The notes: generated from the sequence alone by a model not told the origin. A stretch of 64,000 nt of DNA from an uncultured Bacilli bacterium (GCA_947623935.1 CANQIE010000001.1:4169-68168); one strand, 5' to 3'. Counted from the first letter of the stretch, positions 15,459 to 38,404 are shown. Numbers and translations: made by a program.

Positions 15459-16283
15459 TTACTTTTTATGTACCGTTACCCAGTTACTTAAATAAGCAAA
15501 ATCTTCTAGTGTTAGTTGTTCTGCCCGATACGTCAAATCTTTAGAAATATTCTTTAAACCTTCTTCTAAAAGAGAAAGATCTAATTCTTTAAAATTATTT
15601 TTCAAGTTCTTTCGTTTAAAGTGAAAAGCACATTTTATTAAGTTAAAGAAGTAATCTAAGTCCTCTACTTTAGGCATTTGTTCTTCACTCTTACGGGTTA
15701 AAGAAACAACTACACTATCGACGTTTGGTTTTGGAACAAAGGAATTCTTACTTACAACGAATTCTTTCTTAATATCAAAATAATAGTTTAAGAAAACAGT
15801 AAGAGATCCATAATCTTTGGTGTTAGCCTTAGCACAAAGTCTATCCCCTACTTCTTTTTGGACCATAATTACAATTTTATCAATTGAAATTTTACTCTCA
15901 ATCAATTTCATAATAATAGGTGTTGTAATATAGTAAGGAAGATTAGCCACTACATAGATTTGTTCATAAGAATACGAAGCAATATCCTCTTTTAAATCAC
16001 GTTTTAGAAAATCATCAAATAAAATCTTAACATTGGAATAGCCCAACAAATTTTTATCAAGAATATCTTCTAGACTAGAATCGATTTCATAACACAATAC
16101 ATTATTTCCTGTCTTTGCTAACTCTTTAGTCAAAGTTCCACTTCCAGGACCTATTTCAATAAGCAACGTATGCTCTTTAATATCAGCCACCTTAACAATG
16201 TTTTCAACAATGGACGCTTCTTTGATAAAATTTTGTCCATATTTCTTTTTAAATTGAAATTCTAAGTTTTCCATAAGTTCCAC
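15459..16283 (-). CDS. rsmA: 16S rRNA (adenine1518/1519-N6)-dimethyltransferase
   Basis: QNFI...IEIGPGSGTLT SAM-binding motif; 274 aa. Confidence 0.9.
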   Translation of the reverse strand: MELMENLEFQFKKKYGQNFIKEASIVENIVKVADIKEHTLLIEIGPGSGTLTKELAKTGNNVLCYEIDSSLEDILDKNLLGYSNVKILFDDFLKRDLKEDIASYSYEQIYVVANLPYYITTPIIMKLIESKISIDKIVIMVQKEVGDRLCAKANTKDYGSLTVFLNYYFDIKKEFVVSKNSFVPKPNVDSVVVSLTRKSEEQMPKVEDLDYFFNLIKCAFHFKRKNLKNNFKELDLSLLEEGLKNISKDLTYRAEQLTLEDFAYLSNWVTVHKK

Positions 16284-16333
16284 CTACTTAAGTATACCAT
16301 TAATAAGAAAAGAAAAAAAGGAGATTAAACTCC

Positions 16334-16819
16334 TTAATTCTTTTGACTACCAACATCAATTTTTTGTGCTACACCTTCCGAAAGTTTTGAATTTTCTTTT
16401 TTCTTACTTAATAGCAAGAAGATATTAGCAGCACTTAAACCATATAACATAATTTGAAGTGGTGCAATCATATCGGAATAGTAATCAAAGTTAATATTAA
16501 ATCCCTGCTTAATTCCTGAAATCATAAATGGATCGGCAATAGCACGAATACCACAATAAATAAATAAACTAAATACTAAACAACATACAATGTTATAAAA
16601 AAAATTATCGTTTACAATCTTTTGCCTATAAATAAAATTTACCATAAATAAAATCAAAATGACTAAATAGGGTAAAAATACAGAAACAGATTCAACTAAA
16701 CTTTTATCTAAGCGTTTATACATGAATAAAATAACATAAAGTGTTAAACCTAAACTAACTAAAAGAAGTAACGTTTTTAATACGTTTAATACTTTATTTA
16801 AAAGATAATCAATCGTCAT
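16334..16819 (-). CDS. hypothetical polytopic membrane protein, last gene of SipW cluster
   Basis: 161 aa, 4 predicted TM helices; start overlaps upstream gene stop (ATGA at 16819). Confidence 0.4.
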   Translation of the reverse strand: MTIDYLLNKVLNVLKTLLLLVSLGLTLYVILFMYKRLDKSLVESVSVFLPYLVILILFMVNFIYRQKIVNDNFFYNIVCCLVFSLFIYCGIRAIADPFMISGIKQGFNINFDYYSDMIAPLQIMLYGLSAANIFLLLSKKKENSKLSEGVAQKIDVGSQKN

Positions 16820-17511
16820 TATTTAGCCCCCTCCATTTCTTGTTTAAGAAAGTTTGATAGTTCTTCTGTGAGTGTTGCAACATCACTATAAGCGTCCACA
16901 ACTTCTGTAAAGGAACCGGATACTTCATCATATGTAATGGCTGAAATATAGGTTGTAAAATGGAAACTACTATTATTTAAAAGACGACTTTTTAAACTAT
17001 TGGTTTTTCCTGCCAACTCATTGATATAAAGTCCTAACACTTTTTCATTTTGTAACAAGAATGTATTTTTGATCTCTTTTTCACTAGCATCTGCAAACCA
17101 AGAAAGACTACCAAGACAATTCTTTACAGCTTCATTTTCATAAGATTCTCTTAAATAATATACGTCGACAATATTTACTTGTTGTTTATCGAATGTACTA
17201 CTTATAGTATCATTACTTAAAGCTGTAACACAGGTATTAAGTTTTTGATAGGCAGTTTGAGCTTGAGAACTAGTCAGTGTTCCTTCATAATCGCTTGGAT
17301 TAATGCTAGCAAGATTATCCTTAATATTTTGAACCGATGTTAAATAATCATCAATAACAGAAGTTCGATAACTAGAGGAAATCGTATAAACTTTACTAAT
17401 TTCTGCTTGATGATACATATTGATAAGTAAAAAGAATGAAGCAAAAGCAAAAACTAATCCCATTAGAGAATAAGCAATAATACGACAATATTGTTTTAAA
17501 AAATCAATCAT
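16819..17511 (-). CDS. hypothetical N-terminally membrane-anchored protein in SipW cluster
   Basis: 230 aa; TM helix YSLMGLVFAFASFFLLINMY then soluble S/T-rich domain. Confidence 0.4.
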   Translation of the reverse strand: MIDFLKQYCRIIAYSLMGLVFAFASFFLLINMYHQAEISKVYTISSSYRTSVIDDYLTSVQNIKDNLASINPSDYEGTLTSSQAQTAYQKLNTCVTALSNDTISSTFDKQQVNIVDVYYLRESYENEAVKNCLGSLSWFADASEKEIKNTFLLQNEKVLGLYINELAGKTNSLKSRLLNNSSFHFTTYISAITYDEVSGSFTEVVDAYSDVATLTEELSNFLKQEMEGAK

Positions 17512-17538
17512 AAATGTCTCCTTTTTATTTTTTCATTT

Positions 17539-18114
17539 TTATGAAGCTAAAGTAACTTTGTAATGATAATGCTTATTCGTCCATGAAGTATCATAAGCAT
17601 CCATCTTTACCCAAACACGAAGAGCAAATTCATAGGTTTCATTTCCTTCAATAACACCTTCTGATAAAATATTCATTTGAAGATCGGATAAATTACCAGT
17701 AGCTACTATGTCAGTTCCTCTTTTTAATTGGTAACGAAGTTGGCTACGATCTAACAAAGTAGAAGCAGTACAACCATCTTTAATTTCACCCAAAGGCAAA
17801 TCTTCAATTAATAATCTATATTTTGCCTCATTTTCACTTTTGTTAGTTACTGTGAAAAGATATGGGTTAATAGCACTTCCATCATCGTCAGATAAAGGAT
17901 TTGCTTCCACTAAAGTGATTCCTTCACCATTATCTTTTATTGAAACTTCTAGTAGAGAAACTCCACCACTTAGATTTTCTGGTGTCATGAAGGCATAAGA
18001 GAAACTAAAGATTAAGCATAAACCTATTAATAATACAAACATGATAATAACAGGATAGGAAAAGAAGTTCTTTCCTTTTTTTTCTTCATTTTTCATTTCC
18101 ATTTTTTCTTCCAT
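17539..18114 (-). CDS. secreted protein with SipW-cognate (TasA/CalY-like) signal peptide, paralog D
   Basis: N-terminus ...LIFSFSYAFMTPENLSGG resembles SipW-cognate signal/cleavage region; C-terminal YEFALRVWVKMDAY...KHYHYKVTL motif shared with 19146..21795 paralogs. Confidence 0.5.
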   Translation of the reverse strand: MEEKMEMKNEEKKGKNFFSYPVIIMFVLLIGLCLIFSFSYAFMTPENLSGGVSLLEVSIKDNGEGITLVEANPLSDDDGSAINPYLFTVTNKSENEAKYRLLIEDLPLGEIKDGCTASTLLDRSQLRYQLKRGTDIVATGNLSDLQMNILSEGVIEGNETYEFALRVWVKMDAYDTSWTNKHYHYKVTLAS

Positions 18115-18115
18115 T

Positions 18116-19045
18116 TTAACCTCCTATGGATACTTTATCTTTTTTATTTTTCGGATAAATTCGTATCACATCTTTATATACTTCATCGTTTATTTTAACT
18201 ATTTCCTTCTTTTTCGAAGGTTCAATTAAAATTACATCTTTATATACTTCATTTACTTGCATAACTTCAATGTTGAATAATAAAGCCTTTTCTTGCTCTT
18301 CTATAACATCCTTGTCGGACACAACAGACAAGTTGTCTAACAAATTATAATCCTCTTCTTCAACTGGTTCCACCATAGGAACAACCTTAAATGGATCTTC
18401 ATCTTTTTTAGGTTTACCACCAGCAGCTTTAGTTTTATTATCTTTTTCATCTAGTACTAATTTCTTTCTTGTAGAACGAATAAACACAGCCACTAATCTA
18501 ACAAGATCATAAACGATGATAACTAAACAAGGTAGAACAATGGCAATGATCCAACCGTAGGAAGTAGATAAAAAATCTTGTAAATAACCTAATTTAGGAA
18601 TCTTGAATATGACTTTTCCTAAAATATTTTCTTGGGGTACGATCCAAGAATCTTCAATGTTGTTGTTATCTCCTTTGGTACGATATCGATAATTACCATT
18701 CGCATCTTGGTCACGTCCAACAACACGGTGAGTAACGGTTGCGCCATAATGAATAGGATCATGCGTTACAAAAGTGATGACATCTCCTACTTGTATAGAA
18801 GAAGGTAAAGCTTTAACATCAACTACAGCATCTTTAACTAGAATCGTTGGTTCCATACTATTGGTTAAAATAACATAAGCACTTAGAAGTGGCGAAACAT
18901 AATGATCTTTATTAATATTTTGTTTTTCCTCGACGAAATAGACCACCACTGTAATAGCAATTAAAACCAATATAAGTAAAATAGAATACATGAAAACAGA
19001 TGCAATAAAGTGCAACGCTCTTTTAACATAATCAAATGCTTTCAT
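18116..19045 (-). CDS. sipW: SipW-type (archaeal/ER-type) signal peptidase I with C-terminal extension containing short repeats
   Basis: LTNSMEPTI (catalytic Ser), GDVITF, TKGDNN motifs typical of SipW-type peptidases; C-terminus has repeated EVYKDVI(L/R)I segments encoded by a 20-nt direct repeat. Confidence 0.65.
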   Translation of the reverse strand: MKAFDYVKRALHFIASVFMYSILLILVLIAITVVVYFVEEKQNINKDHYVSPLLSAYVILTNSMEPTILVKDAVVDVKALPSSIQVGDVITFVTHDPIHYGATVTHRVVGRDQDANGNYRYRTKGDNNNIEDSWIVPQENILGKVIFKIPKLGYLQDFLSTSYGWIIAIVLPCLVIIVYDLVRLVAVFIRSTRKKLVLDEKDNKTKAAGGKPKKDEDPFKVVPMVEPVEEEDYNLLDNLSVVSDKDVIEEQEKALLFNIEVMQVNEVYKDVILIEPSKKKEIVKINDEVYKDVIRIYPKNKKDKVSIGG

Positions 19046-19145
19046 TTATGCACCCCGATTCTATTCACTCTACTATACATGATAACAAAAAAAAAGATTT
19101 TTTACAATAGAAAAGAAACATATAGATTATGTTTCTTGACTTATT

Positions 19146-19856
19146 TTACTTAGCAGAGGTAGCTACTAAATTGACTTTAGCAGAGAAAGTTTTTTGACTA
19201 TAGTCTTCTGCATATTGTCTAACCCACAAACGTAGGCGATATTTTTCATTATAGCCACGTTCTTCAATTCTTCTAGTAAATAACAATTTACCATCATATA
19301 CATTACTTTTAAAATCATCATATTGACTGTATACTTTGACACTTCCTATTAAAAGCGTTTCTGGAACGGCTATTTCTCTATTTCCTTTTAGATTGGTTAC
19401 ATATACTTTAACATCCGAATCTGAAAGTGTAGACTCTGCCATTTTTTCTAATATCACTTTATATTCTAATGGATTTCCTTCTCTAGGGTTACCTGTAACT
19501 TGGAAATCAAAGTAAGTATGATTCCCTACCATTACTTTTCCTTCTTCATCAAGCATAGGAAAAGCATTGGTAATATAAATTCCATTGGCAGGAAAATTAC
19601 TTCCGTTTCCACCTGGACCTGAACCATAATATCCACTATTATCGGAATAAGAGAATAAAATATCTCCTGTTTGAATAGTATTATTAGAAGTACTACTTCC
19701 TCCATCCATTCCTAAATAGTCTCGTTGAAAAGCAAATGAAAAAGTCATTATACCTGTAATCAATAAAATAAATAGGAATATAAACATATAAATATTTTTC
19801 TTAGAGGTCTTTGTTTCTTCTTGTTCCATATCCATATTCATGTCTTTTTTATCCAT
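19146..19856 (-). CDS. secreted TasA/CalY-like SipW-cognate protein, paralog C
   Basis: signal-anchor then FSFAFQRDYLGMDGG...NNTIQTGDILF (AFxD...TGTL-like TasA N-terminal motif); C-terminal YRLRLWVRQYAEDY...KTFSAKVNL. Confidence 0.5.
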   Translation of the reverse strand: MDKKDMNMDMEQEETKTSKKNIYMFIFLFILLITGIMTFSFAFQRDYLGMDGGSSTSNNTIQTGDILFSYSDNSGYYGSGPGGNGSNFPANGIYITNAFPMLDEEGKVMVGNHTYFDFQVTGNPREGNPLEYKVILEKMAESTLSDSDVKVYVTNLKGNREIAVPETLLIGSVKVYSQYDDFKSNVYDGKLLFTRRIEERGYNEKYRLRLWVRQYAEDYSQKTFSAKVNLVATSAK

Positions 19857-19947
19857 ACCTCTTCACCTCTATTATAAATGTAACATATTTTTTTTGTTTT
19901 AACAAGTTCTAATCAAAGAAAAAGTATCCTATTAGGATACTTAATTA

Positions 19948-20799
19948 TTATTTATATGATGGGGTATCTACCGCATATACGTCTAATTTAACTGAGAAAG
20001 TTTTACCATTAGTTCCACGAGTTTTTAACTTACATGTATCATCATCTAAATTCGGATGTTCTTCATTACATGTAGAACAATCAACTGTATCTTCCGAATC
20101 ACTACTAGTAGTACAAAAATCATTTGTCATATAAGTTTTATTAGTATCGATTTCATCACTTAGTTCTTTGTATCCATCAGCTGAAAGATTAGTAGTATAA
20201 TAGTGATCAGATAACCACATTTGAAAGCGATAATAATGAGTCTTTTCTCCACTAGTTTGGTCAAAAGTATTCGTATATAACAATTTATCACTATTAGATG
20301 AACCATTTCTAGTATAATTTTCTAACTTATCAAAATAACTATTTTGGTGCGTAGATTCAATATTAATTGGCGTATAATCGCCTTCTGCATCAGAAGTTTT
20401 GGTTAGTAATCTTAAACGAACATATTTAGATTCAAGCGCACTAACACTAGCATGGTCTGTTGTGTCATCTACCACGATATCATACTTAATACTCATATTA
20501 CCATTGATAGTGGAAGTTACCGTAAAATCAAATTGCCCCTTATCACCTAAAGCATTAGCTTTTGTTGCTTCTTCATCTGACATAGGCATTGCATTTGTTA
20601 ATTTAATACCATTCTCGTTTTCTTCATACTTAAATACTAAAGTACCAGTATTAATCGTATTGGTAGTTGTTCCTTGTCTTGAATAAGTAAAGAATGCAAA
20701 TGACACTCCTACTACTGCTACCACCAAAATAGCTACGGCTAAAACTGATAATAAAACTTGACTTGTTTGATGACTGTTATTATTTTTTTCTTCGTACAT
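19948..20799 (-). CDS. secreted TasA/CalY-like SipW-cognate protein, paralog B (tandem duplicate)
   Basis: start taken at second ATG (MYEEKNNN) 8 nt after AGGAGG; VGVSFAFFTYSRQGTTTNTINTGTLVF resembles TasA AFNDIKSKDATFASGTLDL; HYYRFQMWLSDHYY and GTNGKTFSVKLDVYAVD shared with paralog A. Confidence 0.55.
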   Translation of the reverse strand: MYEEKNNNSHQTSQVLLSVLAVAILVVAVVGVSFAFFTYSRQGTTTNTINTGTLVFKYEENENGIKLTNAMPMSDEEATKANALGDKGQFDFTVTSTINGNMSIKYDIVVDDTTDHASVSALESKYVRLRLLTKTSDAEGDYTPINIESTHQNSYFDKLENYTRNGSSNSDKLLYTNTFDQTSGEKTHYYRFQMWLSDHYYTTNLSADGYKELSDEIDTNKTYMTNDFCTTSSDSEDTVDCSTCNEEHPNLDDDTCKLKTRGTNGKTFSVKLDVYAVDTPSYK

Positions 20800-20865
20800 C
20801 TTTCTTATCCTCCTTATCATAATTAGATTATAATAAAGTTAACCCCCCCCAGTCAAGTAATTTGA
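20626..20865. repeat. 240-bp direct repeat copy 1 (promoter + 5'UTR + first 58 codons of paralog B)
   Basis: identical to 21622..21861 at every position I compared, offset 996 bp. Confidence 0.85.
20827..20856 (-). promoter_or_regulatory. sigma-A-like promoter TTGACT-N18-TATAAT whose spacer contains a G8 homopolymer (C8 on plus strand 20843..20850)
   Basis: minus strand reads TTGACTGGGGGGGGTTAACTTTATTATAATCTAATTATGATAAGGAGGATAAGAAAGATG; -10 lies 7 nt before first ATG, SD AGGAGG serves second ATG. Confidence 0.55.
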
Positions 20866-20955
20866 CAAAAATTTTTATCATAAAAAAAGCAGACTATATT
20901 TTTTATCATTGTCTACTTTTATCATATTACATAATACAGAGTGATTTTTATTATT

Positions 20956-21795
20956 TTATGTACTTGGTGCATCTACTGCATAAACGTGTAATTTTACTGC
21001 AAATGTTTTACCGTTAGTTCCTTTGTCCTCAGATGAATATTTTGCTGTTCCTTTTTTTTGCCCTTCTTCAGCATTTTCTCCATATACAGGATCATCACAT
21101 GGAACTTTGTGATCTGCTTCTGGAACATCCTTGTCATACTCAAGATTTGTACACATATCAGGTTTCATCATAGTTTCTTTTTCTTCTTCGCCTTCCTTGT
21201 AATGGTCAGACATCCACATTAGAAAACGATAATAATGATGACCACTTACACTAAAACTATCAGTATGTAATGTCTTAAGTGTGCCAACAGTCTTACTAGG
21301 ATCTTTAGTCGAATTAACTAATTCATCAAAATAAGTTGCTGAATCTGTTGTATTTGTATAGTTGCTATTGGTTTCACTTTTCTTCAATAAAACCTTTACA
21401 TATTTAGAATCTAATGTTTTACGTTCACCCGCTCCTTCAACTGCAGATAAAGAAACATTTTCTACTGCAATTTCATAGTTAATTTTTACATTTCCGGTGA
21501 TTGTTGACTCAACATTAAAATCAAAAGCCTGTCCTGCACCTGTTCCATAAGTCTCTCCAGTAGCCACTGTATCTGCTATAGGTAAAGCATTCTCAAGTTT
21601 AATACCTGGATTTGGTTCGTTATACTTAAATACTAAAGTACCAGTATTAATCGTATTGGTAGTTGTTCCTTGTCTTGAATAAGTAAAGAATGCAAATGAC
21701 ACTCCTACTACTGCTACCACCAAAATAGCTACGGCTAAAACTGATAATAAAACTTGACTTGTTTGATGACTGTTATTATTTTTTTCTTCGTACAT
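20956..21795 (-). CDS. secreted TasA/CalY-like SipW-cognate protein, paralog A (tandem duplicate)
   Basis: first 58 aa and entire 5' UTR/promoter identical to paralog B; C-terminal domain diverged but keeps HHYYRFLMWMSDHY and GTNGKTFAVKLHVYAVD. Confidence 0.55.
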   Translation of the reverse strand: MYEEKNNNSHQTSQVLLSVLAVAILVVAVVGVSFAFFTYSRQGTTTNTINTGTLVFKYNEPNPGIKLENALPIADTVATGETYGTGAGQAFDFNVESTITGNVKINYEIAVENVSLSAVEGAGERKTLDSKYVKVLLKKSETNSNYTNTTDSATYFDELVNSTKDPSKTVGTLKTLHTDSFSVSGHHYYRFLMWMSDHYKEGEEEKETMMKPDMCTNLEYDKDVPEADHKVPCDDPVYGENAEEGQKKGTAKYSSEDKGTNGKTFAVKLHVYAVDAPST

Positions 21796-21861
21796 CTTTC
21801 TTATCCTCCTTATCATAATTAGATTATAATAAAGTTAACCCCCCCCAGTCAAGTAATTTGA
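21622..21861. repeat. 240-bp direct repeat copy 2 (promoter + 5'UTR + first 58 codons of paralog A)
   Basis: identical to 20626..20865. Confidence 0.85.
21823..21852 (-). promoter_or_regulatory. second copy of TTGACT-G8-N10-TATAAT promoter (C8 on plus strand 21839..21846)
   Basis: identical to copy at 20827..20856. Confidence 0.55.
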
Positions 21862-21914: not shown

Positions 21915-22502
21915 TTACCAACCCCAACGAAGTATTTCGTAGGAGATATTATATTGTCTACCAATAGGGGCTGTAACTTTTTCTGATTCAAACAATAAAT
22001 CCATAGTTAATCCTTTAATAGCACTTCCACGATCAAGCGCAATGGCTATAATAGGTTCACTACTAAAGCGGAAGTTTGATATTTTTACAATAGTTCCACA
22101 CGGAATCACTGGATCAGTGGCTACAATTCGTATAGTTCCATAAGTTGCATCGTTAAAATAGATATTCCCATCTCGTACATCTTGTCTTGGAGGACATCCT
22201 ACTCTTCCTCCACATCCTTCACAATCGGGACCATAGCCTGTGATAGTACCAGTAAAAGTAATAGGACCAATAGGACCTTGCTCCTCTATTTCAGCAAGAC
22301 TTGATACATATAGAGGTTTATTACTATCTAAAATAGCATTATATTTCGATACAATGTGAATAGCTTCTAAAGATTTAGTACGATTAATATTATCTGTTTT
22401 AATTACTTCACGTTGATTACCAGAAGCAATAATTAAAAGAATTACTGCTATAAAGGAAATGAGAAGAAAACGATTCTTCATGGCTACTAAAAATTGTCTC
22501 AT
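21915..22502 (-). CDS. 3D-domain (MltA-like) cell-wall-binding protein, YabE/YuiC-like
   Basis: N-terminal TM, C-terminal TGYGPDCEGCGG...VATDP...IALDRGSAIKG...D 3D-domain pattern; position after tatD as yabE in B. subtilis. Confidence 0.65.
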   Translation of the reverse strand: MRQFLVAMKNRFLLISFIAVILLIIASGNQREVIKTDNINRTKSLEAIHIVSKYNAILDSNKPLYVSSLAEIEEQGPIGPITFTGTITGYGPDCEGCGGRVGCPPRQDVRDGNIYFNDATYGTIRIVATDPVIPCGTIVKISNFRFSSEPIIAIALDRGSAIKGLTMDLLFESEKVTAPIGRQYNISYEILRWGW

Positions 22503-22531: not shown

Positions 22532-23293
22532 TCACATCTTTTTCGTTAAGTCAAATAAACGATGGGTATTTGTTAAAGTTATTTTAGATACTTCTTCTAG
22601 TGTTATTTGTTTAATATCCGCAATTCTTTGCGCAATAACAGGGATATTCCAAGGACCATTCTTTTTTCCACGATAAGGTTCAGGAGCCAAATAAGGACTA
22701 TCCGTTTCTAAGAGTATTTTTTCAAGAGGAAGTTCTTTGACCGTTTCATGTAGTTTGCTATTTTTAAAAGTAACAACGCCTCCAATTCCAAAATAAAAAC
22801 CTAATTTTAAAAAAACTTTAGCCATTTCTAAACTTTCATTAAAGCAGTGGAGAACACCTACTACGTTATATTCTTTAATAATATCATAAGTATCTTGAAT
22901 AGCATCTCTTGTATGAATAACAACAGGAAGATGATACTTTTCAGCGAGTGCTAATTGTTTTCTAAATAAGTCAATTTGCTTATTTCTATTTTCTTTTCCA
23001 TAATGATAATCAAGTCCTATTTCTCCTACGCCTACACAAGAAGAAGCTTTGATTTTTTCTTCTAAAAACTTTAAGTCCTCATCAATTACAGAGTCCGCAC
23101 AATCAGGATGGTATCCCAAAGTTAAAAATACATCTTCTTCTAGTGATGCAATTTTTAAAACTTCTTCCATTTCTTTTCTATTACAACCACTTACAATAAA
23201 AGGGGAAACTTGATTTTTTCTTGCTTCATTTAAAACTTCTTGATAATCATCATAACTATCGCTTCCTAAATGAAAATGAGTATCAATAAACAT
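22532..23293 (-). CDS. tatD: TatD-family metal-dependent DNase (YabD)
   Basis: MFIDTHFHL N-terminus, 253 aa TatD hydrolase fold motifs. Confidence 0.9.
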   Translation of the reverse strand: MFIDTHFHLGSDSYDDYQEVLNEARKNQVSPFIVSGCNRKEMEEVLKIASLEEDVFLTLGYHPDCADSVIDEDLKFLEEKIKASSCVGVGEIGLDYHYGKENRNKQIDLFRKQLALAEKYHLPVVIHTRDAIQDTYDIIKEYNVVGVLHCFNESLEMAKVFLKLGFYFGIGGVVTFKNSKLHETVKELPLEKILLETDSPYLAPEPYRGKKNGPWNIPVIAQRIADIKQITLEEVSKITLTNTHRLFDLTKKM

Positions 23294-23604
23294 ACAATTC
23301 CTTCTTTCAGCAATAGTATATCATAGAAAAAGAATGACTAAAAATCATTCTTTACTTAATACTACATAATACGTAAAACCAAAAAGCAGAATTACGCCAA
23401 AAGTGAAGTCTAGCAGGCATCCATCAATAAAAGGAAGTACTTTAATAATGATGGATATCAGCACACATCCTAACAAGGTGTTTCTAAGGCTTCGTTTCAT
23501 GTGTAATAGTTTCATCGTCTTGTTCCCTTTCTATTCTTTTTGAGCAACTACTTTCTCACTATAACATAATAGAAAAAGGAAATAGAAGTTTTTTCTTCTT
23601 TATT

Positions 23605-25184: not shown

Positions 25185-25435
25185 AAAAAAAGATGACTTA
25201 TTATGTTAAGGACGGATCTTTTCCGCGGTACCACCTTAATTTATAATAAATCATCTTATTATACACTTTCTAAAGTTAACGCCTATCTTACGTTTTCGCC
25301 TACCTATCGACGAAAAAGTTCCGAAGCCATATCCATTTGAGTCATCTTTCCTTGCTTTCACCTAACCAAGGTCTCTTTTTTAAAGAATCAATCAAAGGAC
25401 TCTTCATCAAAACTTTTGAATATGGCTAGATTATA
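25185..25435 (-). promoter_or_regulatory. T-box riboswitch leader upstream of metG
   Basis: minus strand contains T-box sequence AATTAAGGTGGTACCGCGG (plus 25223..25240); terminator halves AAGATGATTTATTAT / ATAATAAGTCATCTT flank it, followed by U-run and metG RBS; ATG-containing candidate specifier region GAAAGATGACTC further 5'. Confidence 0.65.
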
Positions 25436-38264: not shown

Positions 38265-38282
38265 AAATTATCACCTCAAAAT

Positions 38283-38366
38283 AAAAGATGCACATGAGAT
38301 TAAACTATTAAAGCTGCTATCTTCCGATCCTGACTTGGTTCTAGTCATCTCATTGCATCGTTATTA
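38283..38366 (-). ncRNA. ffs: small SRP RNA (4.5S/scr), domain IV
   Basis: minus strand GATGCAATGAGAT...GTCAGGATCGGAAGATAGCAGC...ATCTCATGTGCATC: closing helix plus conserved GUCAGG-NNN-GGAA-NNN-AGCAGC with GGAA tetraloop; U-run follows. Confidence 0.6.
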
Positions 38367-38404
38367 TTGTAATCTATTTTTATTTTTTTTGCAACTATAT
38401 ATTA

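Follow-up and report, generated by a model that had tools for sequence, protein, structure and literature searches.

A stretch of 64 000 nt from the genome of an uncultured Bacilli bacterium (GCA_947623935.1, CANQIE010000001.1:4169-68168), hereafter called the window, harbours a cluster of seven co-oriented minus-strand genes called as open reading frames (ORFs), i.e. A1-A2-A3-SipW-a4-M1-M2, between a 3D-domain gene and tatD on one side and rsmA on the other (Table 1). We propose, with a probability of roughly 60 %, that this locus encodes a Sec- and SipW-dependent, donor-strand cell-surface fibre of the TasA superfamily. A1-A3 are made with a highly conserved signal anchor, and the signal peptidase SipW would cut after S-F-A35; the freed N-terminus, (F/A)FTYS..G...NTI.TGT, would then act as donor strand in the beta-sandwich of the next subunit, and strand exchange would give rise to a hetero- or homopolymeric fibre. 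A1 and A2 may represent highly expressed, interchangeable and possibly phase-variable major subunits, each with its own near-consensus promoter, and A3-SipW-a4-M1-M2 would form a translationally coupled operon. More speculatively, a4 could be the subunit that anchors the fibre near the membrane or ends it, in the manner of TafF in the haloarchaeal Tafi pili, M1 and M2 could form a membrane platform aiding SipW or holding the base of the fibre, and dispersed long A-domain proteins with Big_2 or other repeats could be fed into, or displayed via, the same machinery.

We retrieved 78 loci from species-representative genomes, i.e. metagenome-assembled genomes (MAGs) of uncultured gut ‘Bacilli’ or ‘Tenericutes’, including Candidatus Onthousia. 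The order metG-tatD-(3D)-A×1-7-SipW-a4-M1-M2-rsmA-yabG-veg is kept in ~55 of the 78, with subunit genes adjoining a dedicated signal peptidase I and the paralog a4, which is the locus organization of the TasA superfamily; most loci outside these ~55 are short or truncated contigs. A 42 %-identical homolog lies at the same position in another MAG, within the same seven-gene order. SipW, a4, M1 and M2 form a single-copy core of conserved gene lengths (M1 has 229-231 aa in most orthologs), and the sole variable in the makeup of the locus is the number of A genes, i.e. one to seven in relatives. An earlier note on this DNA, made from the sequence alone, had named the flanking genes correctly (tatD and a yabE-like gene, here the 3D-domain gene, upstream, rsmA-yabG-veg downstream) and had described the cluster as inserted there, interrupting the conserved order. 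This description is true only relative to Bacillus: in the related genomes the cluster is conserved at this exact position, hence it is a fixed syntenic feature of the lineage and no insertion specific to the source genome. A recent mobile insertion was ruled out because synteny is kept and the base composition is flat over the cluster region, with no sign of foreign DNA. PHROGs and PADLOC scans gave no phage or defence signal, a lone TGT match (E = 0.004 over 28 residues) being disregarded. Exact look-up of the A2 protein of the window returned no contig, and that of M1 only a 5-kb Logan contig.

The peptidase had been recognized as SipW-type from its motifs, and its repeat-bearing tail had been noted; both aspects were confirmed. 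SipW passes the curated archaeal/endoplasmic reticulum (ER)-type signal peptidase I model TIGR02228 with 95.8 bits (cutoff 51.85), carries S63 in SMEPT, H106 in THRV and D126 in GDNN, and has two transmembrane (TM) helices at ~9-42 and 158-192. With 79 bits it stays under the 190-bit cutoff of the Bacillus SipW equivalog NF046067; judged by these models, it belongs to the enzyme class of Bacillus SipW but is no ortholog-level SipW. The tail of ~115 aa (window 18116-18460) follows the second TM helix, is charged and Lys/Glu-rich, and is presumably cytoplasmic. It contains a 22-aa tandem repeat (18132-18252), EVYKDVI.I.P.KKK, and is common only to the nearest relative, L004 (311 aa), most orthologs having ~200-230 aa. 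The SipW of locus L065 (412 aa) also has a long tail, of different sequence.

A1 and A2 are 51 % identical, and BLASTP searches in a database of the seven proteins linked A2 with A3 (E = 7e-13) and both A3 and A2 with a4 (~1e-5). Alignment of the A family with 21 a4 orthologs by hhalign gave a probability of 98.4 % (E = 6e-15, 172 columns), and the a4 of the window matches the hidden Markov model (HMM) of the A family at 1.8e-12. By these sequence comparisons A1-A3 and a4 are four true paralogs, as initially proposed, and the A-family HMM found no A genes in the window beyond these four. All four also carry the C-terminal motif noticed at the outset (Y.F/L.hW ... KTF/HY..K). The N-terminal motif NTI.TG.L.F, which had been ascribed to all four, holds for A1-A3 only; a4 lacks it and reads ENLSGGVSLLEV at this position. 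A1 is made up of a signal anchor, a putative cleavage site S-F-A|F, the motif NTINTGTLVF, a beta-sandwich body and an insert with two Cys.

At E <= 1e-3, an exhaustive HMM search with the A family recovered 5,495 representative clusters (50 % identity), of which 2,448 also pass E <= 1e-10. The N-terminus is its most conserved part, with G31 at 96 %, A35 at 98 %, N47 at 98 %, Y58 at 94 %, E60 at 92 %, and A70 and P72 at 99 % among 142 unbiased representatives; T51, G52, F90/F92 and the C-terminal YRLRMW strand are further conserved positions. The predicted -1 residue is A35, conserved in 98 % of the family, with Ser at -3. This pattern is in line with a -3/-1 signal peptidase site and, behind it, an N-terminal segment that has a function.

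In a4 the position equal to the -1 Ala of the A family is occupied by Leu, Val, Met, Ile, Phe or Trp in 41/49 orthologs, and such large hydrophobic residues suggest an uncleaved signal anchor in most species. The two membrane proteins listed in the earlier note are present and, beyond what it had claimed, are conserved core components rather than bystanders. M1 was modelled with a predicted local distance difference test score (pLDDT) of 86.6 as a TM helix followed by an all-alpha ectodomain, i.e. a generic helical bundle. Its invariant residues are N31, Y33, H34, C94, D116 and C132, which include two Cys and an N-x-Y-H at the membrane exit. M2, with ~4 TM helices, has N8, R36, P50, N61, N76, R92 and D96 invariant. 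Both are orphan families, and member-by-member Pfam scans of their alignments added nothing.

The relation of the A proteins to TasA was approached by profile comparison and by modelling. For hhalign we used the Bacillus subtilis TasA sequence identical to PDB entry 8AUR. The A family aligned with this single sequence over 58 columns (E = 1e-3, probability 20 %) and with TasA plus eight plasmid TasA paralogs at a probability of 6.7 %; a broader A profile (221 sequences) reached 39 % against the same TasA set (E = 3e-4, 88 columns). The TasA profile built from these Bacillus cereus-group plasmid paralogs has a number of effective sequences (Neff) of ~2, a low diversity that did not raise significance. 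The register was constant and makes biological sense: SFA|xF is paired with TWA|AF, the donor strand of TasA (28-38) with the mature N-terminus of the A proteins, the TasA linker with TGTL, and the self-complementing strand plus LKPGD with GI.LTNA.P; the TasA segments are those defined in PMC9674648. An AlphaFold2 model of A2 built with 80 sequences (pLDDT 74, predicted template modelling score 0.70) shows a TM helix and then an all-beta sandwich, with residues 31-56 disordered, and it is this disordered segment that aligns with the TasA donor strand. Therein the Cys-bearing insert of A2 is modelled with partial confidence, the 10-residue block means being 59 and 53 (residues 201-220) and 70-92 (221-260). 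The likeness to TasA at the level of predicted fold and alignment register is the best lead, short of proof.

Several results weigh against a TasA-type fibre. When 80 A-family members were scanned singly against Pfam and NCBIfam, the TasA model NF046066 was matched by 14/80 (best E = 0.0033) and PF12389 Peptidase_M73 by 3/80 (best E = 0.029), all below cutoff, and the SipW-cognate model TIGR04088 by 6/80 with a best E of 1.2. The checks by PF12389 and TIGR04088 that had been suggested at the outset thus remained below threshold, and the A proteins do not belong to the curated TasA/M73 family. The suggested structural comparison fared no better: the A2 model is all-beta, but Foldseek against the PDB gave no match with E < 7.6e-3, none being significant, and TasA was outside the top 50. 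With signal peptides removed, the match of the A profile to the TasA profile is weak (score 18.0, P = 0.063), if above 30/30 column shuffles (maximum 15.1). The a4 of the window itself reads S-Y-A|F, a plausible cleavage site, which makes the anchor role uncertain in the source genome. M1 and M2 have no counterpart in the characterized TasA, BsaA, Abp or Tafi loci, so that their roles are guesses. Finally, cleavage, strand exchange and polymerization are all inferred.

Other searches were equally sparse. A1-A3, a4, M1 and M2 showed no family match in Pfam and NCBIfam scans, SipW being the only one of the seven proteins that matched. A profile search of PDB sequences returned noise at E >= 0.5, including two archaeal pilus chains via their hydrophobic N-termini. 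A metalloprotease function of the type implied by ‘camelysin’ was rejected, as no such model matched; the name itself is considered a misassignment (PMC11580942). Overall, the locus fits the template of the TasA superfamily, but its sequence families escape current models and two new accessory proteins are present.

The unusual conservation of the hydrophobic N-terminal segment could alternatively be explained by a type IV-pilin-like filament that retains this helix as its core, and very weak matches to archaeal pilin N-termini, i.e. to Pilin_N (2/80 members, E = 0.23) and to PDB 6NAV (E = 1.6), point the same way. We consider this highly improbable: a prepilin peptidase, an assembly ATPase and a platform protein were not found in the cluster by the Pfam/NCBIfam scans, nor was a class III signal (G|F...E5). 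Instead, the -1 position is of the signal peptidase I type, with an Ala conserved at 98 %, and the operon contains a signal peptidase I gene. The globular part is, moreover, predicted to be all-beta and TasA-like, not of the alpha-beta pilin fold.

A1 and A2 have in common a 240-nt block free of mismatches, which extends from position -66 to position +173 (counted from the ATG) and spans promoter, ribosome-binding site, signal peptide and the putative donor strand/motif up to Y58; identity then falls abruptly to ~50 %. A mismatch-free block with such an abrupt end points to gene conversion, or to exchange of the body while the 5' module stays fixed. In the comparison with L004, the closest relative, identity is 91-99.5 % for metG, tatD and the 3D-domain gene, 85-88 % for SipW, a4, M1 and M2, and 83 % for A3, but only ~51 % for A1 and A2 with respect to the genes at the corresponding positions (window 19948-21795 versus L004 7055-8846). 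By sequence, the A1/A2 bodies are hypervariable, and the view of an expanded, diversifying substrate set taken in the earlier note is borne out by this contrast and by the one to seven copies in relatives.

The only G/C runs of >=7 nt in the window are two minus-strand G8 tracts, located in the promoter spacers of A1 and A2. In the homologous promoters of relatives (L004, L005, L019 and L064) we found G7, G8, G9 and G10, read from MAG consensus sequences, which cannot show within-population heterogeneity. Due to these differing tract lengths, the A1/A2 promoters are candidates for slipped-strand phase variation. Homopolymeric tracts are known to drive such variation in surface antigens, examples being the poly-G promoter spacers of Neisseria and the poly-A spacers of the Mycoplasma vlp genes. 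As in these antigens, both A1/A2 promoters have the tract between -35 and -10 and its length varies, here among relatives; unlike in these antigens, switching is putative here.

Acidic Cys-bearing inserts precede the last strand of A1 (residues 215 and 233) and A2 (residues 229, 241, 244 and 256); they occur only in the closest relatives (members of 259-283 aa) and may form disulfides or bind metal.

Hypervariable bodies and poly-G promoters are typical of variable surface antigens, and it may be asked whether the A proteins polymerize at all. The A domain could rather be an envelope stalk or anchor module that SipW processes or leaves anchored, with A1-A3 as monomeric variable antigens or adhesins, without a polymer, and the long fusions as adhesins in a lineage that perhaps lacks sortases. 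Among 141 newly retrieved top A representatives, 55 exceed 300 aa, the longest having 1,743 aa; their A domain lies at ~2-200, and some carry Big_2 or Flg_new (Listeria-Bacteroides) repeats. Many family members combine an N-terminal A domain with such or other passengers. None of these 55 has an LPXTG motif or a C-terminal TM helix, an observation that we also count in favour of the proposed fibre, and no LPXTG was found in the C-terminal 75 residues of A1-A3 and a4. One A-domain fusion (P0172) is a solo gene off-locus, and its MAG carries an A-A-A-SipW cluster as well (L026); another MAG harbours short solo A and a4 genes away from the locus. RFN20-type Bacilli have been reported to lack srtA/B (PMC10868615), which counts only if the source organism belongs to RFN20; no support for placing it or Candidatus Onthousia there was found in the literature searched. 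Such a non-polymerizing display is the main alternative but nevertheless appears unlikely to us. The near-invariant segment after the cleavage site (N47, T51, G52, Y58, E60) would serve no evident purpose in a monomer; the monomer model leaves it disordered, and it aligns with the TasA donor strand. The top structural match is, in addition, a fibre subunit, though none of the Foldseek matches was significant.

Many long A-domain fusions, whose passengers otherwise differ, end in a common C-terminal domain with a recurring motif, ~GVRPV(V/I)YLKS...I.GG.GT...PY.L (P0142, P0165, P0168, P0170, P0213, P0220, P0259 and others). In the MAG Lapin-012__bin84, solo genes of the A and a4 types are numerous and dispersed, with fusions of 380-606 aa among them (L011, L037, L041, L048, L052, L064, L071, L073, L074, L078, L081), and the tatD position has a single A gene without the SipW core. 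In this MAG the A family can be seen to expand and scatter.

The ORF coordinates and minus-strand orientation given in the earlier note were reproduced, and the shorter A1 and A2 starts it had chosen are those with an AAGGAGG ribosome-binding site upstream. Its count of eight genes has to be corrected to seven because a search of the intergenic gaps found no further ORF. SipW and a4 are separated by 1 nt, a4 and M1 by 27 nt, and the M1 stop overlaps the M2 start (ATGA); A3 is the probable first gene of an A3-SipW-a4-M1-M2 operon. Terminator-like hairpins follow A2 and M2, and a third one lies 3' of the 3D-domain gene. The placement of promoters and terminators agrees with strong expression of the major-subunit genes and a machinery operon behind them.

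The same promoters bear on timing. The locus lies amid yabG, veg, spoVG, spoVT and yabP, and its products might thus be a spore coat or appendage component made during sporulation, a spore-surface option that had already been raised. Sporulation-linked yabG and a SpoVT-like regulator are nearby, TasA/CotN was first described as spore coat-associated (PMC9674648), and the Cys inserts of A1/A2 recall cross-linked spore appendages. This neighbourhood is, on the other hand, the conserved yab region of Bacillota, whose housekeeping synteny (metG, tatD, rsmA) is silent on timing, and the A1/A2 promoters are of the vegetative sigma-70 type, matching the consensus at 11/12 positions. With nothing specific in its favour, a spore function seems improbable.

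The proposed fibre locus can be compared with several known systems. Like tapA-sipW-tasA of B. subtilis (PDB 8AUR; PMC9674648), it combines a dedicated SipW-type peptidase with adjacent substrates and has a divergent paralog or minor component in the operon; the substrate is a predicted beta-sandwich whose cleavage site, N-terminal segment and first strands align with TasA in register. The A proteins, however, show no significant sequence or HMM match to TasA/Peptidase_M73, and where B. subtilis has one major-subunit gene the present locus has three variable ones. As to the minor component, a4 is truly paralogous, probably retains its anchor in most species and is not TapA-like; the locus additionally encodes the conserved membrane proteins M1 and M2 and occupies a fixed housekeeping position.

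In Clostridium perfringens, sipW likewise lies beside several remote TasA paralogs (sipW-bsaA-bsaB-bsaC), BsaA oligomers are membrane-anchored without LPXTG, and operons with several BsaA/TasA paralogs have been noted, suggesting heteropolymers (PMC11580942). In contrast to the bsa operon, which lacks M1 and M2, the present cluster has no counterpart of the von Willebrand factor A (VWA) protein BsaC. The BsaA isopeptide triad N35-E56-K74 might correspond to N47 (98 %), E60 (92 %) and K79 (77 %) of the A family, a comparison of sequence positions only, with the Lys missing from A1.

The TasA superfamily of donor-strand filaments comprises TasA, BsaA, AbpA, AbpX, CanA, threads and Tafi, and such loci encode major and minor subunits, a tip protein, the single-TM jellyroll anchor TafF, a signal peptidase I and accessory membrane proteins (PMC12337348, PMC9245690, 10.64898/2026.01.04.697558). 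The present locus resembles the Tafi, AbpA, AbpX and CanA loci in its putative major and minor subunits, candidate anchor (a4, cf. TafF), signal peptidase I and membrane accessory proteins, and A-family members give recurrent weak matches to DUF7472 and DUF7502. The locus differs from haloarchaeal Tafi in being bacterial and of Sec type rather than Tat, and from the archaeal filaments in that a DUF5305 accessory and a tip-protein gene were not recognized in the cluster by Pfam/NCBIfam scans, M1 and M2 being unrelated to the described accessory proteins. Neither a TapA-like nor a DUF5305-type signal peptidase accessory protein was found in the locus, as M1 and M2 match no Pfam/NCBIfam family. 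As a working analogy only, chaperone-usher and sortase pili also consist of head-to-tail beta-sandwich subunits, with major/minor and adhesin-carrying subunits; unlike in these pili, chaperone, usher, sortase and LPXTG were not found in the cluster, and the gene content is of Bacillota type.

TasA-superfamily fibres are emerging as a cross-domain route to biofilm matrices and pili, and PF12389 and TIGR04088 miss the A branch. With at least 5,495 clusters (50 % identity), this branch seems to be confined to uncultured Bacilli that have small genomes and live in association with hosts. It is tempting to speculate, albeit as a tentative extension, that the A domain is a lineage-wide N-terminal ‘polymerise-and-display’ module, i.e. 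that a SipW/a4/M1/M2 machine assembles a phase-variable, cassette-swapping heteropolymeric fibre and attaches dozens of dispersed adhesin-like fusions. This would amount to sortase-independent display, and M1/M2 would be a new kind of membrane platform for assembly or an accessory complex of the signal peptidase. Should the fibre reading itself hold, the principal system by which these gut bacteria build surface fibres and display adhesins would be identified. M1 and M2 would be new conserved accessory proteins of the membrane to study, and there would be an example of antigenic/phase variation in mollicute-related gut commensals, in which hypervariable bodies are placed behind an identical promoter/signal/donor-strand module with poly-G spacers. 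New family models are called for in the case of A, a4, M1 and M2, which are now annotated as ‘hypothetical’.

Table 1. Genes and sequence features of the cluster and its flanks (positions counted from the first nucleotide of the window)
Feature	Position	Strand	Description
tatD	22532-23293		upstream flank, beyond 3D-domain gene
3D-domain gene	21915-22502		195 aa; upstream flank of cluster
A1 5' module	21623..21861	-	100 % identical to A2 copy, 20627-20865
A1 promoter-like site	21823..21852	-	TTGACT, 18-nt spacer, TATAAT; G8 at 21839-21846; 11/12 consensus matches
A1	20956-21795	-	279 aa; putative major fibre subunit; A-family HMM E = 1e-68
A2 promoter-like site	20827..20856	-	identical to A1 site; G8 at 20843-20850
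A2	19948-20799	-	283 aa; putative major fibre subunit; 4-Cys insert
Terminator-like hairpin 3' of A2	19922..19942	-	
A3	19146-19856	-	236 aa; third subunit paralog; Gly-rich insert
SipW	18116-19045	-	309 aa; archaeal/ER-type signal peptidase I; TIGR02228
a4	17539-18114	-	191 aa; single-copy divergent paralog; candidate minor or anchor subunit
M1	16819-17511	-	230 aa; N-terminal TM helix and all-alpha ectodomain
M2	16334-16819	-	161 aa; small membrane protein, ~4 TM helices
Terminator-like hairpin 3' of M2	16318..16335	-	before rsmA
rsmA	15459-16283		downstream flank, then yabG, veg

Some minor observations concern the surroundings of the cluster. The product of the 3D-domain gene, described as ‘yabE-like’, is a short protein that combines a signal anchor with a 3D domain and lacks the DUF348/G5 regions of Bacillus YabE; the gene is found in only about half of the related loci. 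Between metG and tatD lies a 56-aa hydrophobic ORF (23345-23515, minus strand), with a 61-aa gene called at the same position in L001, and this ORF may represent a conserved small membrane protein. Upstream of metG there is a T-box leader (25205-25419, minus strand; 118 bits), which is ordinary for Bacillota, and a small bacterial signal recognition particle (SRP) RNA was found at 38271-38369 on the minus strand (64 bits).

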